NCBI GenBank assembly: GCA_037443265.1
Contig: JBBIOR010000003.1
Coordinates: 30,019-94,018 of the forward strand
Length of the DNA: 64,000 nucleotides
From: Candidatus Fraserbacteria bacterium
GTDB taxonomy: Bacteria; Bipolaricaulota; Bipolaricaulia; RBG-16-55-9
Reading direction: 5' to 3'
Below the pieces are notes generated by a model, which worked only from the letters and a program-made list of their open reading frames with translations, made no database searches and was not told the origin of the DNA. Made by a program: the position numbers and the translations under genes. Below, one piece after another: positions 5,581-11,067 of this stretch; position 1 is the stretch's first letter; every line of letters starts with the position of its first letter.

Positions 5581-6276
5581 ATGAAGAAGGAACTGGAAGC
5601 CCTCTTAGCTCTTCAAGCGCAAGACAAACGCCTTAGGACTTTGCAGGACCAACTCCAGCGACTCTTCGAACAGCGCCAGCAGCTGCAAGCCACTCTGGAC
5701 GCAGAAGAGCAGATCTTAGCCGAAGAGCGGAGGCGATTGGCTGAGCTCCAACGCCTCAGCTGGGAGAAGACAGCGGAAGTCGATGATCTGGATGTCCAGA
5801 TTCGCAAATACGAGCACCAGCTGGAGGAAGGCCTCCTCAGCTTCAAGGAGATGGAGGCGCTGCGCGAGAAAGTCCAGCACAGCCGTCAGCGCATGGAGCA
5901 GCTGGAAGAGGAGGCCATTCCGCTCTTAGAACGAGTCGAGCAGGAGAGGGCCAAGATGGCCGAGCGCGAGGCGGCCTTTGCCCAGTGGAAGAGCCGCATG
6001 GCCGAGGAAGTCGCCGAAGTGAATCAGCAGTCGGAAGAGCAGCGTCGGAAGATCGAGGAGGAGCAAGCCAAGCGCCGGGAGCTGGCCCAGCACGTCGATG
6101 CGGCCCTTCTGGAGCGCTACGAGCGTCTCCGTGCCGAATATGAAGACCCCCTGGTCGCTGTGCGCGACGGGCGCTGCAACGGTTGCAAGCTTAACTTGAG
6201 CGAGACCACCATCGAGCGCGTCCGCGAGGGGTTAGACCTCGTGACCTGCGAGAACTGCTTGCGCATTCTATATTAG
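5581..6276 (+). CDS. Coiled-coil protein with C4 zinc ribbon (DUF164/CT398 family)
   Basis: Long heptad region, then CNGC...CENCLRILY. Confidence 0.88.
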   Translation: MKKELEALLALQAQDKRLRTLQDQLQRLFEQRQQLQATLDAEEQILAEERRRLAELQRLSWEKTAEVDDLDVQIRKYEHQLEEGLLSFKEMEALREKVQHSRQRMEQLEEEAIPLLERVEQERAKMAEREAAFAQWKSRMAEEVAEVNQQSEEQRRKIEEEQAKRRELAQHVDAALLERYERLRAEYEDPLVAVRDGRCNGCKLNLSETTIERVREGLDLVTCENCLRILY

Positions 6277-6292
6277 TAGCTCTCAGCCTGTG

Positions 6293-7042
6293 ATGTCCCG
6301 TAGGGCATTCTGGGTCATTGGGGGAATGATCTGCTTCGGGCTCTTTAAGGGTCTGGCAGCCGAAGAGCCTCCGCTCCCCCAGCCGATAGGGGAGCTCAAC
6401 GACTACGCGGGCATCCTGGGACAAGAGAGCCGCCAGCAACTCCAACGCAGCATCGATGAGCTGAAGACCCAAGGCGTGAAGGTGTTTTTGCTGATCACTC
6501 TTCTTGATCCCTTCAGCGATCCTGCGCAGCTGGCAGAGAGGATCTGGCAGGCGTGGAAGCTTGCGCCTGAGCGAACGATCCTCATCGTGTTCGTGAGGGA
6601 GGCAGACCAGTGGGCTCTCTGGTGGAAGCTCACGCCGGATCTGGCCTCACAGTTGGACTACTCCTCCACTGGGGAGTATCGGAGCTCTCTGGAGCGGCTC
6701 CTCAAAGAGCGGCGGGTGGGACAGGCTGTTGTGCATTCCATTGAGTCGCTGCGAGGGTGGTTTGCCCCTCCCAAAGCGTCTGAGGAACTTCCGCCCAGAG
6801 CGGGTCCTTCTGCGGGCTCTCCGCTCTTCTGGTACCTGCTGGCAGGAGCAGGCGGAGTGGGGATGATTGCAGGCTTGATCTGGTTCGCTCTCGTCTGGCT
6901 CTGCCCCGAGTGCGGGGGGAGGCTGAGCCGGCGTTCTGCCTGGGCTTTCGGGCCCGGCCGTTGGGCTCGTAGCCGGAGGCGCGAGCGGGTATACTATTGT
7001 GCGCGATGTGGGTATCTCCGCATCCGACGGGGAGAGAGGTAG
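6293..7042 (+). CDS. TPM-domain membrane protein with C-terminal zinc ribbon
   Basis: Signal peptide, LNDYAGIL TPM start, one TM helix, CPECGG...CARCGY. Confidence 0.75.
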   Translation: MSRRAFWVIGGMICFGLFKGLAAEEPPLPQPIGELNDYAGILGQESRQQLQRSIDELKTQGVKVFLLITLLDPFSDPAQLAERIWQAWKLAPERTILIVFVREADQWALWWKLTPDLASQLDYSSTGEYRSSLERLLKERRVGQAVVHSIESLRGWFAPPKASEELPPRAGPSAGSPLFWYLLAGAGGVGMIAGLIWFALVWLCPECGGRLSRRSAWAFGPGRWARSRRRERVYYCARCGYLRIRRGER

Positions 7043-7388
7043 AGGGCCGCGGAAGCGTCAAAGCTTCTGAGGAAAGTCCGGGCTCCACAGGGCAGGCCGC
7101 TCGGTGAGAAGCCGAGAGGGAGCGATCCCTGGGTAAGGCCACAGAGACCAGACCGCCGACGTGTACTTCAGCCGACAGGCCCGAAGCGCACAGGCAAGGG
7201 TGAAAGGGTGGGGTAAGAGCCCACCGCCGGTCCTCGCGAGAGGGCCGTGGCTGGCAGCCCCCCGGCCGGAGCAAGGCCAAATAGGCAGGCGCTTGAGGGT
7301 GGCCCGCCCGAGCCTGTGGGTAGGCCGCTCAGATAGATGGCCCTCGCCCTTCATCAGGGAACAGAACCCGGCTTACGCCTCTCTCCCC
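7029..7388 (+). ncRNA. rnpB: RNase P RNA (bacterial, type A-like)
   Basis: GAGGAAAGTCCGGGCTC near 7069 and ACAGAACCCGGCTTA near 7361. P1 helix GGGGAGAGAGG (7029-7039) pairs with CCTCTCTCCCC (7378-7388). Confidence 0.95.
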
Positions 7389-7554
7389 GGCTTTGCTTTT
7401 CTGCCTGACAGCAACGCTTGGGTGCTCTTTGGGTCTTCGGTCCTCCGGAGCCCTGACTCCCATGCTGTGGCTCCTTGGCCCCTGCCTGCCGCGTCCCGAC
7501 GAGCATCCTAGCACAAAGCGACGGAGGGGACAAATGCCCTCTCTTAAGTTCGGC

Positions 7555-7582
7555 TTGCATCCAGAGCGGGAAGTGCTATAAT
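7555..7582 (+). promoter_or_regulatory. ssrA promoter
   Basis: TTGCAT-16 nt-TATAAT with extended -10 TG. Confidence 0.7.
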
Positions 7583-7947
7583 AGCCTTGCGTTCTTTGAC
7601 AATTGGGGGTGAATGGATTCGACGGGGATGCCGAAGGGCAGGCCGCAGGTGGAGTTGGCCGCTCACTCCTTAATCAGGCGGCAAAGCACGATAAGTGCCA
7701 ACGAATTTGCTTACGCTGCTCCTTCGCTAAACTAACGAAGGAGCCGTTCGCTTGAGCTTCCGCCTGCAGGGCTCAGGACGAACGTCGATGATGCGGGCTG
7801 GCTCTACTCTGCGCCCTCCGGAGTGGAGTGACACCTAGAGGGCTCGGACGCCCAGATCCTGTCTCGTGGGAGCTTAGCGTCTCAAAACAGAGCACGAGAC
7901 TATGCCTGTAGAAGCCGATCGGAGGCATCTCCGGACGCGGGTTCGAT

Positions 7948-8523
7948 CAACTGCGTTATGGCAGTAAGGGTCGTCAAGGCGTTATCTCAAGCTGAGGCAG
8001 CCTATTTAGCTGGGCTTGTGGACGGCGAAGGTACTATCACCTTGACCCACATACATAAAGGAGCTAATAGGCAGCTGTCGGTTTCCATAGCCAACGCACA
8101 AGCTCTAGAGCTACTTCAGCAAATCGCGCCGTACCTCCGAACCTACAAGAGGTTACGCGCTGAGCTGGTGATAGAAAGATACAAAGCCTTGACGCCTAGA
8201 AACGGCAAATACTCCCCCGAGCTTCTGGCTGAACGGGAGAGATTCATAGCAGCTGTCCTTGCCATAACTCCGAAGGTCGCCCTGGGCAGTAATGCTCAGG
8301 TGAACACGGGGCTCACATCGGCGAAACCTGCTTGCCCACAAGGCAATGGCAACGCCGAGGGGTCGGAAGAGGGCTAACCTCAGGCCGGCCCTGTAGAGAC
8401 TTATAGGCCCGCCGAAGCTCAAGCTGGGTGGGTACTAGGAGCACGTCAACGTGCTAAGACGCCCCGCATCCCAGGAGGGATGAAGGCATAGTCCAGCCCA
8501 GTCCGAAAGGATTGGAACCGCTG
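7948..8523 (+). mobile_element. Group I intron (IA-like) in the tmRNA T-loop
   Basis: Exon ends in U and intron ends in G. P2 8281-8300 (GTAA loop), P3 CGGGGC/GCCCCG, P4 TCGGCG/CGCCGA, P7 GACTTA/TAGTC, P7.1, P7.2, P8 CATCCC/GGGATG, P9 with GAAA loop. Confidence 0.93.
7958..8377 (+). CDS. Intron-encoded single-motif LAGLIDADG homing endonuclease, probably internally deleted
   Basis: AAYLAGLVDGEGTITL motif. Starts in the intron P1 loop and reads on into the ribozyme core. Confidence 0.8.
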   Translation: MAVRVVKALSQAEAAYLAGLVDGEGTITLTHIHKGANRQLSVSIANAQALELLQQIAPYLRTYKRLRAELVIERYKALTPRNGKYSPELLAERERFIAAVLAITPKVALGSNAQVNTGLTSAKPACPQGNGNAEGSEEG

Positions 8524-8567
8524 TCCCGCCACCTCCACCAGATGTCGGACGTGAGAAGGATACTGCG

Positions 8568-9926
8568 ATGAAGACACTGAGTTGGGTTCCCATACTAGCT
8601 GTGGGATTTACTTTGGTCTTAAGCACTGCCCATCTCAGTCAGAGTCAAACCTCCCCAGGACCCATACATCTTCTCAGTGTCAAGGCCAGCATCAATCCCA
8701 TCACCAAAGATTATTTGATCAGTCACATTCAGCGTGCCCAACAGGAGGGGGCCTCTCTGGTGATCATCCAGCTGGATACGCCCGGAGGACTCGTCTCCTC
8801 TACCAAAGACATCGTGGATGCCATTCTCAATGCGAGGGTGCCCATTGTAGTCTGGGTCGGTCCGGCGGGTGCCTGGGCGGCCTCCGCCGGGACGTTCATC
8901 ACGATGTCGGCCCATGTGGCCGCGATGGCCCGCGGAGCCACCATCGGAGCGGCCCACCCTGTAAATATTGACGGCTCAGCCCCCAGCAAGGAGCGCCCCC
9001 CAGGGGAGCAGAGCAAAGACCAGCAAGAGCCCTCACAGGGGAGCGGAGATGCCGTCACGGAGAAGGTGACGAATTTTACGGCCGAGTGGGCGCGGGAGAT
9101 CGCCAAAGTCCGTGGCCGCGATCCCGACTGGGCCGAACAAGCTGTCCGCTCCAGTGTGACCGCTGGCTGGGAAGAGGCTCTCAATAAGAAGATCATCGAT
9201 CTGGTGGCGGACAGCAGGGAAGAACTCCTTGAAAAGCTCAACGGCTATGCGCTCCAGGATGGCCGGACGCTCACCACCGAGGGCTTGCCTGTCTTGAACA
9301 TGCCCATGAGCTGGCGCGAGCAGCTCCTCAACTATCTGGCCGATCCCAATCTCGTGTATATTCTTCTGCTCATTGGGATCTATGGCCTCATCTATGAGTT
9401 TTTGAGCCCCACGATCGGGCTCGGGTTCATCATCGGAGGCATCTCACTTCTTCTGGCGTTCTTGGGATTACAAGTCCTCCCCGTCAATCTTGTGGGGCTG
9501 GCCCTCATCTTCTTTGGCGTCCTGCTCATGATCCTAGATATCTTCACGCCGACTCACGGCATCCTGACGACCGGGGGAGTCGTTTCGCTCTTAGTGGGCT
9601 CCTTCACGCTCTTTGAGATTCCCGATCCCGCATGGCAGCTGTCGGTCTGGAACATTCTGGTGACGGTGGGGGCGGTGACGGGGCTCTTCCTCTTCTTCCT
9701 CAGCAAGGGGCTCTTGGCCCAGAGGCGCGTGCCGGTCACAGGCCTGGAGGGCATGATTGGGGCCCTAGGGATCGTCAAGGATGATTTGAACCCCAAAGGC
9801 CGGGTGCTGGTCAAGGGCGAGTACTGGTGGGCTCTTCCTGTGGACGGTCAGCCCATTTCTTCCGGAGCAGAAGTCATCGTCGAGCGGGTGGAGAACGGAC
9901 GACTGCTCGTGCGCCGGCGCTCGTAG
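8568..9926 (+). CDS. nfeD: NfeD-family membrane-bound ClpP-class serine protease
   Basis: LDTPGG, AASAG, IGAAHPV, a TM block, C-terminal OB domain (GRVLVKGEYW). Confidence 0.92.
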   Translation: MKTLSWVPILAVGFTLVLSTAHLSQSQTSPGPIHLLSVKASINPITKDYLISHIQRAQQEGASLVIIQLDTPGGLVSSTKDIVDAILNARVPIVVWVGPAGAWAASAGTFITMSAHVAAMARGATIGAAHPVNIDGSAPSKERPPGEQSKDQQEPSQGSGDAVTEKVTNFTAEWAREIAKVRGRDPDWAEQAVRSSVTAGWEEALNKKIIDLVADSREELLEKLNGYALQDGRTLTTEGLPVLNMPMSWREQLLNYLADPNLVYILLLIGIYGLIYEFLSPTIGLGFIIGGISLLLAFLGLQVLPVNLVGLALIFFGVLLMILDIFTPTHGILTTGGVVSLLVGSFTLFEIPDPAWQLSVWNILVTVGAVTGLFLFFLSKGLLAQRRVPVTGLEGMIGALGIVKDDLNPKGRVLVKGEYWWALPVDGQPISSGAEVIVERVENGRLLVRRRS

Positions 9927-9930
9927 GGCT

Positions 9931-11067
9931 CTACGCTTCAGCGACTCTTTCGGGTCGGATCTCTTCTGGGGCTACGAGCAGGGCGCGCTCGCTCTGCCGG
10001 TCAAAGAGCTGCACTTTCTCGGCGTTGACCACCAGGGGCAGCTCCTCTCCCACAGAGATCTCCAGGCCGGGGTTGAGTCTGGCCACAAGCTCAAAGCTGC
10101 CCAGATTGCCATAGACGATCAGCTCTGAGCCCAGGGGCTCAATGACCCTAACCGTCAGGGTGAGGCGAGGGGAGGGCTTGGCATCAGGTGGCTGTGCCTG
10201 AAGGTGCTCAGGTCGGATGCCCACGATGACCGCGCGCCCGATGTGATCGGAGAGTTGAGCCGCCCGCTCGGAGGGGATCTCAATCTGAAAGCCCTCGCCT
10301 TCGGCCCGTAGGCCGCGGTCGTCCTCGACGAGTCTGGCCTCTAAGAAATTCATCGCTGGGCTGCCGATGAAGCCGGCCACGAACACATTGGCCGGATGAT
10401 CATAGAGCCTCTGAGGGGTATCGACCTGCTGGAGCACGCCGTGATGGAGCACGGCCACCCGCTGGCCGAGCGTCATGGCCTCGACTTGATCATGGGTGAC
10501 GTAGATGGTAGTGGTCTTGAGCTTCCGGTGGAGCTCTTGCAGTTCCGCGCGCATGTGCACGCGCAATTTGGCATCGAGATTGGAGAGCGGCTCGTCAAAT
10601 AGAAAGACTTTGGGCTCGCGGACTATGGCTCGTCCGACGGCCACCCTCTGCCTCTGGCCTCCGGAGAGCTCCTTCGGCTTGTTCTGTAATTTATCCGCGA
10701 TTCCCAGTAGCTCCGCGGCTCTTCTGACCCGCCGATCAATCTCCCGACGGGGCACGCCTCGAAGCCTGAGCCCGAAGGCGATGTTGTCATAGACGTTCAT
10801 GTGGGGATAGAGGGCATAATTCTGGAAGACCATCGCGATATCTCGATCCTTGGGGGCTACGTCGTTCACGAGCGTGCCGTCAATCCAGATCTCGCCGGAG
10901 GTGACCTCTTCCAGGCCGGCGACCATGCGCAAGATGGTGGTCTTGCCGCAGCCGGAGGGCCCCACGAGCACAATAAGCTCTCCATCTTCGATCTCAAGAC
11001 TGACGCGATCGACAGCCAAAAGATCCCCGAAGCGCTTGGTGACGTCCTTGAGCACAACCTTGGCCAT
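9931..11067 (-). CDS. Sugar ABC transporter ATPase (MalK/MsmX/UgpC type)
   Basis: [28 protein letters not shown] tail. Confidence 0.96.

Follow-up and report, generated by a model that had tools for sequence, protein, structure and literature searches.

The tmRNA gene in the 64,000-nucleotide stretch of Candidatus Fraserbacteria DNA that was analysed (hereafter the window) is split in its T-loop by a 576-nt insert which, by all sequence-level hallmarks and by covariation, is supported as a group I intron of the IA-like type. We hold with high confidence a reading in which this IA-like intron at T-loop position 7 would splice out of the transcript, carries the remains of a homing endonuclease gene (HEG) and is probably immobile by itself. 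It is a member of a known and widespread family at T-loop position 7 of bacterial tmRNA genes, and as an intron it is of modest interest. The part most worth following is the two locations of its endonuclease: the family is mostly encoded beside tmRNA genes, and it is found inside the intron only in the lineage of the window.

The interrupted tmRNA gene and the fold of its insert

With its insert the gene measures 936 nt, and it is made up as follows.

7605-7947, + strand: tmRNA exon 1, with the acceptor 5′ strand GGGGGUG (7605-7611), the tag reading frame, the pseudoknots and the 5′ half of the T-arm up to U7947 (Rfam RF00023, 131.7 bits at 7612-7949, and direct sequence reading)
7697-7735, + strand: tag reading frame GCC...TAA, encoding ANEFAYAAPSLN
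7948-8523, + strand: group I intron, 576 nt, at T-loop internucleotide position 7 (between U6 and U7)
8524-8540, + strand: tmRNA exon 2, consisting of U, the T-stem 3′ strand CCCGC, the acceptor 3′ strand CACCUCC, and ACCA

The first-pass annotation had the tmRNA break off at 7947 and resume at 8524, and these coordinates are exact to the base: the 5′ half of the T-arm, ...GGACGCGGGTTCGAT, stops at 7947, and TCCCGCCACCTCCACCA, which constitutes 8524-8540, is found uninterrupted in intron-less relatives. The RF00023 match is without the 3′ T-arm and acceptor part, which comprises the 15 consensus positions immediately preceding the terminal A. By direct reading, joining 7947 to 8524 restores the T-arm GCGGG/UUCGAUU/CCCGC and brings together a 7-bp acceptor stem (7605-7611 with 8530-8536), which includes G3.U70 and is followed by ACCA. 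Numbered after the Figure 2 legend of PMC11915505, the insertion point is position 7, with GGGUUCGAU running directly into UCCCGC and the T-loop re-formed on joining.

Among the relatives whose tag frame our script located (n=6: L005, L006, L010, L012, L014 and L015) the tag ending ...AAPSLN is common to all. Their tags, ANELAYAAPSLN, ANQYAVAAPSLN and ADNLAFAAPSLN among them, do not end in ...LAA, which is the common ending of tmRNA tags. On the same strand, 214 nt upstream of the tmRNA gene, lies a gene for RNase P RNA of bacterial class A (7031-7390, 214.9 bits), which overlaps the 3′ end of the ORF at 6290-7042 by 12 nt; two housekeeping RNA genes thus stand in tandem. A promoter scan returned no sites, and the sole terminator-like site lies inside the next ORF.

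Such introns were said in the first-pass annotation to be missed by routine annotation, and this one is a case in point. Aragorn reports neither a tmRNA nor a tRNA in 6000-10500, and the Rfam tmRNA model, which had been proposed as a check, matches exon 1 and stops at the intron. With Aragorn silent and the Rfam match truncated at its 3′ end, routine annotation would miss or mis-call the gene. The Rfam group I model, RF00028, has no match at E≤10 in 7900-8600, and its best match genome-wide sits elsewhere, at 12.5 bits; taken to the letter, this is the lack of a match to group I covariance models that was to speak against the intron. The miss is uninformative, since the 12 seeds of RF00028 include no bacterial sequence (preprint 10.1101/2020.01.27.920355). 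Rfam cannot accommodate the dedicated tmRNA_intron covariance model, against which known members reach 225 bits or more (PMC11915505).

Our structure model was derived from an ORF-less copy of 273 nt in a related genome (L011). Transferred to the window, it has the following elements, for which the coordinates of P5, J5/4 and P8 were read by hand from the fold of the window core.

7944-7948, + strand: P1 5′ strand, exon CGAU and the first intron base C, with the splice site after U7947
7949-8274, + strand: P1 loop (L1), 326 nt, housing the inserted ORF
8275-8279, + strand: P1 3′ strand, the guide GGUCG (P1 pairing and covariation alignment)
8281-8300, + strand: P2 hairpin CCUGGGC/GCUCAGG, 7 of 7 pairs compensatory
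8307-8312, + strand: P3 5′ strand CGGGGC, partner 8461-8466, 100% paired
8318-8391, + strand: P4-P6 domain (fold and covariation), comprising P4 (8318-8323/8353-8358), the A-rich J4/5 AAA (8324-8326), P5 (8327-8328/8348-8349), P5a (8332-8336/8342-8346), P6 (8360-8366/8385-8391) and P6a (8369-8372/8378-8381)
8392-8403, + strand: J6/7 and P7 5′ strand, the classical R element UGUAGAGACUUA, U8402 bulged
8408-8432, + strand: P7.1 hairpin CCCGCC...GGUGGG, 5 of 6 pairs compensatory
8440-8455, + strand: P7.2 hairpin AGCACG UCAA CGUGCU, 4 of 5 counted pairs compensatory
8461-8466, + strand: P3 3′ strand GCCCCG, closing the P3/P7 pseudoknot
8467-8482, + strand: P8 hairpin CAUCCC AGGA GGGAUG
8483-8493, + strand: J8/7 AAGGCA and P7 3′ strand UAGUC, the classical S element, invariant
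8498-8515, + strand: P9 hairpin with GAAA tetraloop, 6 of 7 pairs compensatory
8523, + strand: omega G, the intron terminus, ...CUG/UCCC being nearly invariant in the 78-sequence alignment

The boundaries obey the rule that had been claimed for them, the 576-nt insert being preceded by U7947 and ending in G8523. Likewise, the guide sequence (IGS) GTCG is found where it had been placed, at 8276-8279, and pairs with exon CGAU (C7944-G8279, G7945-C8278, A7946-U8277 and the wobble U7947.G8276), with C7948-G8275 as a further pair. In our alignment of 78 sequences, the splice-site U.G pair is kept in all 72 that contain the exon, and in two of them, both with the T-loop TTCAAT, an exon G-to-A change is accompanied by C-to-U in the IGS. 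A point against the intron reading is that P1 of the window has only 5 bp and closes across a loop of 326 nt; from the splice site to the IGS G that faces U-1 there are 328 nt, vs 9 nt in the ORF-less L011.

The P2-P9 core with P7.1 and P7.2 that had been described for the insert is present in all its parts and has covariation behind it. The MFE fold of the ORF-less copy recovers every nested helix (z -6.86, with 0 of 200 shuffles as good), and that of the window core has the same helices (z -4.25). The alignment combines 7 Bipolaricaulota cores with 71 compact copies from other phyla (72 distinct rows minus a duplicate of L011). Expressed as percentages of paired cells, which are inflated because the sequences are related and the structure was derived from one of them, agreement with the model is 99.2% of 473 cells in the 7 Bipolaricaulota cores, vs 31-43% in slid controls, and 96.8% of 5115 cells in the 78 copies from several phyla, vs 30-44%. 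The robust part is the compensatory counts set against slid controls: 11 pairs vs 0-2 in the 7 cores and, in the 78 copies, 545 cells vs 22-83, with 34 of 66 pairs compensatory and none of 500 shuffles reaching the observed value. It is this covariation that establishes the fold. One P3 pair changes from G-C to A-U in 30 sequences, and P7 and J8/7 are invariant in all 78; in group I introns the A-rich J4/5, J8/7 and P7 carry out the chemistry. Also to be counted against the intron is an A-C mismatch in P5 of the window, at a pair that is G-C in most Bipolaricaulota copies.

The insert thus has the U.G pair in P1, the omega G, the core of P3-P7 pseudoknot, P4-P6, P8 and P9, and the conserved joining regions that define membership of group I. 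The IA-like label given to it at the outset agrees with the finding of P7.1 and P7.2 between P7 and the 3′ strand of P3, and is kept here at that level, IA1, IA2 and IA3 not being distinguished; P7.1 and P7.2 are among the class-defining features (PMC3984707).

Distribution of the intron and its published class

Forty-one related genomes were searched at the DNA level, followed by pattern extraction. Intron-less alleles in relatives, which the first-pass annotation had suggested looking for, are seen directly: the T-loop is uninterrupted in 6 genomes of the window's own family (L005, L006, L010, L012, L014 and L016) as well as in 6 genomes of other families (L015 and L018-L022). The same insert is found at the same base in 6 genomes of one genus in another family, with intron sizes of 710 nt (L004), 466 nt (L007), 531 nt (L008), 545 nt (L009) and 273 nt (L011), the sixth (L013) being truncated where its contig ends; L017 has a partial copy that is diverged. 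The interrupted genes of relatives come to 6 complete and 2 contig-cut ones, and together with the copies in other genomes described below this recurrence at one site goes far beyond chance. The contig-cut copy L013 (end of contig C75 of genome G028) has its counterpart in L146 (end of contig C37 of the same genome), the assembly breaking inside the intron and the last 38 nt lying on another contig. A BLAST survey of the phylum, which took in 184 species genomes, some of them incomplete, found the intron in 7; these are the genome of the window and 6 of the 14 species of the other-family genus, with none of the 8 other genomes of the window's family among them.

Beyond the phylum, a 20-mer spanning J8/7 and the P7 3′ strand was scanned over species-level genomes and gave at least 119 loci, 80 of which were fetched. 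As many as 74 of these 80 are complete tmRNA genes with the intron at the same site. The other six include four (L030, L086, L091 and L101) that are without a tmRNA 3′ exon and represent chance or other matches, one contig-cut copy (L032) and one remnant (L096). Among the fetched loci, all copies from outside Bipolaricaulota have 261-341 nt. Judging by the records, most hosts belong to Gamma- and Betaproteobacteria, and Nitrospirae, Bacillota and Bipolaricaulota are represented too. Compared with the other Bipolaricaulota copies, the window core has an identity of 80-84%; with the 71 from elsewhere it has 64-77% (median 71%). The remnant, in a Burkholderiales MAG (L096, ~400-1265), lies ~190 nt behind an intact intron-less tmRNA gene. 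Its intron part, truncated at the 5′ end, reaches from the guide as far as the omega G and is followed by another 3′ exon; the whole has the look of a leftover displaced behind a gene since restored.

All this fits a class already described. The catalogue in PMC11915505 distinguishes standard, permuted and intron forms of tmRNA genes and counts 883 unique intron-form sequences, in 21 phyla, out of 97,179 tmRNA sequences; its introns are all in the T-loop, mostly at position 7 and in a minority at sites 2, 3 and 8, and their boundaries follow the rule of U at -1 and omega G. The appraisal of the insert as the most striking hidden structure of the window therefore has to be tempered, the same T-loop position being already catalogued in a set of 883 unique sequences. 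With these introns the window's shares the host gene, the U6/U7 site, the -1 U.G pair in P1, the omega G and P7.1, and the two groups are alike in the occasional presence of LAGLIDADG HEGs and in size (261-341 nt for the compact copies vs a founding average of 293 bp in PMC11915505). They differ in where the HEG is found. HEGs occur in 36 of the 883; among the 23 founding cases they follow P9 in 4 and lie in the P7.1 region in 19, whereas the ORF of the window is in the P1 loop, which is not among these two HEG positions of the 2025 catalogue (PMC11915505). They differ also in length: the text of PMC11915505 gives 700 bp as a limit that no tmRNA intron exceeds, and the intron of the window has 576 nt, that of L004 (G012:C21) 710 nt. 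As 710 nt exceeds the stated 700 bp, the L004 lineage may be outside the published set; Bipolaricaulota is not named in the main text of PMC11915505.

The experimental anchor of the class for self-splicing is the 287-nt intron of the C. botulinum tmRNA gene, likewise of group I, which is listed among those previously shown to self-splice (PMC2729099). The clostridial intron is without an ORF, whereas that of the window carries one. We take it to be of subgroup IA3. A further paper, PMC13153191, was set aside because it deals with a 23S rRNA intron.

Proposed splicing and rival readings of the insert

By analogy with its intron family, folding of the transcript would bring exon CGAU (7944-7947) into pairing with GUCG (8276-8279) across the P1 loop. 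Bound in P7, an external guanosine would then attack after U7947, and the freed exon end would attack after G8523, joining ...GGGUUCGAU to UCCCGCCACCUCCACCA with ...GGGUUCGAUUCCCGCC... as the ligated junction. The product would regain the T-arm and the acceptor stem that are needed for alanylation and SmpB binding. In the genome (1.69 Mb, 88% complete) a single tmRNA match exceeds the cutoff, the others being tRNA-sized and sub-threshold, and the SmpB gene is intact, with 152 aa and no stops. Because of this single tmRNA and intact SmpB, it is plausible that trans-translation relies here on splicing, as the first-pass annotation had proposed, and the tmRNA gene is complete and probably functional. 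Since the HEG is short of 38 internal residues and no longer has its Shine-Dalgarno sequence, the intron would probably no longer be mobile by itself, and its retention would come from the fact that it must still splice.

The same gene could be viewed as a tmRNA pseudogene with a splicing-dead relic in it, trans-translation being lost or else served from the unassembled 12% of the genome. None of the sequencing runs listed as containing this stretch is recorded as RNA, the intron combines a large decayed insert in P1 with a P1 of 5 bp and one mismatch in P5, and at 88% completeness a second tmRNA gene is possible. However, every core helix is intact in the window copy, which even has a lineage-specific compensation in P2 (A-U to G-C) and a P5a that differs in sequence and is still paired; no change has occurred in J8/7, P7, the omega G or the U.G pair, and SmpB is intact, the tag frame conserved and no second tmRNA found over cutoff. 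We therefore consider a relic very improbable. A still more different view takes the insert for some other disruption of the gene, by an insertion sequence, by the end of a genomic island or by an assembly chimera. It can draw on the missing Rfam group I match and on the fact that tmRNA genes are known as island integration sites (PMC11915505). Against it, the boundaries after U and after G restore the T-loop precisely, the pseudoknotted fold is backed by covariation, many assemblies that are independent of each other have the element at this very base, and the insert is without an integrase or transposase ORF. We give this view next to no chance: short of wet-lab proof of splicing, covariation together with recurrence at the same site rules it out.

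The LAGLIDADG gene inside and beside the intron

The insert contains an open reading frame that was overlooked in the first reading of the sequence.

7958-8377, + strand: decayed LAGLIDADG homing-endonuclease ORF, 139 aa (ORF list, Pfam and alignments)

It begins 10 nt into the intron and fills the P1 loop, and its last ~35 codons run through P2-P6a to a UAA stop (8375-8377) in the P6a loop. There is a single LAGLIDADG motif, YLAGLVDGEG, with the acidic residue kept. Single-motif (homodimer-type) LAGLIDADG endonucleases are exemplified by I-CreI, I-MsoI and I-CvuI. The family resembles such I-CreI-type enzymes in its one motif and in having full-length relatives of ~140-160 aa that pass PF14528, as do, with 26.8 and 26.6 bits, the ORFs of L004 (178 aa) and L013, both full-length. 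It differs from them in that the match of full-length relatives to solved LAGLIDADG structures is weak (best E 0.024) and in that the window copy is short by 38 residues. With 17.4 bits against PF14528, below the cutoff of 22.5, and an incomplete fold, the window ORF falls outside what Pfam would accept as LAGLIDADG. The 38 residues are consecutive and internal, are missing by comparison with the closest full-length relative (P0007), and fall in the block to which the Pfam LAGLIDADG models align in full-length relatives. Where relatives have GAGG, five bases ahead of the ATG, the window has TGCG. In L007, L008 and L009 the ORF carries other frameshifts or deletions, and L011 is without it. Judging from the aligned copies, the sister series follows the course that homing endonuclease genes usually take in decay, and the 139-aa ORF is probably inactive.

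A working protein, be it a homing endonuclease or a splicing helper (maturase), is what the 139 open codons and the in-frame nature of the deletion might argue for, as might the persistence of the motif region and the C-terminal helical part (identity to P0007 is 58% overall and much higher outside the gap). Yet the loss of 38 residues lies within the Pfam LAGLIDADG block, the score is under the Pfam cutoff, the Shine-Dalgarno sequence of relatives is gone, and of the sister copies three (L007, L008 and L009) carry other damage and one (L011) is ORF-less, so that we regard a functional ORF as very unlikely. With its HEG read as decayed, the intron illustrates well the phase of decay in the homing cycle, its close relatives spanning full-length, deleted, frameshifted and ORF-less copies, with intron-less alleles in sister genomes.

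Relatives of the endonuclease are numerous, 1631 proteins out of 1720 candidates being matched at E≤0.001, and 80 metagenome loci encoding them were fetched. In none of the 80 is the gene inside the intron. The Rfam tmRNA match ends 340-470 nt upstream of the ORF in all 20 loci that were scanned, and the gene order is tmRNA 5′ exon, a compact intron of the same family as the window's, 3′ exon, a hairpin and then the endonuclease gene. When the context of the 80 loci was sorted by intron profile search, an intron-bearing tmRNA gene was found directly upstream on the same strand in 66 (at 44-220 nt, median 86) and adjacent on the other strand in 2, i.e. 68 adjacent in all. In 7 loci the upstream sequence was too short to classify, including L190, which has an intron-less tmRNA with the T-loop TTCAACT. 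The remaining 5 had no intron match: L163 stands behind an intron-less tmRNA-like end (TTCGATG), L173 behind a tmRNA 3′ end, and 3 elsewhere. The T-loops of L190 (~150-320) and L163 (~840-950) differ from the usual TTCGATT and may be naturally resistant variants of the target.

The genome loci show the same association from the side of the intron. An endonuclease gene or fragment lies 38-289 nt downstream in 31 of 75 loci with the intron; in 19 of the 31 the alignment extends to 120 aa or more, and in 3 the gene has the opposite orientation. Of 56 tblastn matches, 25 with negative gaps, to the tail of P0007, were the intron core read as protein, and these were discarded. In 6 of the 80 metagenome loci (L170, L171, L184, L189, L212 and L214) an intron-less 3′ fragment of T-arm and acceptor follows 23-113 nt past the endonuclease stop, so that the endonuclease gene is bracketed by two tmRNA 3′ ends; these trailing fragments may be the footprint of a cassette insertion.

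In a quick ML tree of 102 rows, the P1-loop copies form one clade (SH-aLRT 98) among free-standing ones. The tree takes in rows with at least 125 aligned residues and no stops, leaves out L024, L044 and L061, and is rooted at the midpoint; its label 'free' covers all metagenome rows, including 12 with unknown or different context, and the row L032, labelled free-standing, is the same record as L013.

An arrangement of this kind is known from phages. In collaborative homing, described for two phage systems, a free-standing endonuclease and an ORF-less intron share the same target (PMC3984707). The relatives from other phyla are similar, in that their HEG is free-standing and adjoins a gene split by an ORF-less intron. 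In the lineage of the window, by contrast with a phage collaborative pair, the same endonuclease family is inside the intron, so that a HEG outside the intron and beside the intron-bearing gene is found in the other-phyla relatives and not in the window. Furthermore, the phage systems involve protein genes, whereas here we have bacterial chromosomes, an RNA gene and a LAGLIDADG enzyme.

The arrangement in relatives suggests that an intron captured a neighbouring endonuclease. In the fuller scenario, the free-standing family would reside downstream (40-220 nt) of tmRNA genes that bear the intron, as in Proteobacteria, Nitrospirota and others, and a single capture of such a tmRNA-adjacent LAGLIDADG gene by the intron of a Bipolaricaulota ancestor would leave both stages of homing on record, with the trailing fragments as footprints. 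We put this forward tentatively, as a proposal whose chances fall a little short of even. Our literature search, for which many subscription journals were beyond reach, turned up no account of a tmRNA-associated LAGLIDADG gene, whether free-standing or in a P1 loop. If the scenario is true, these loci would be a natural chromosomal record of a route to mobile introns by collaborative homing and then endonuclease invasion and, if confirmed, they would offer a testable bacterial system for the association between introns and endonucleases.
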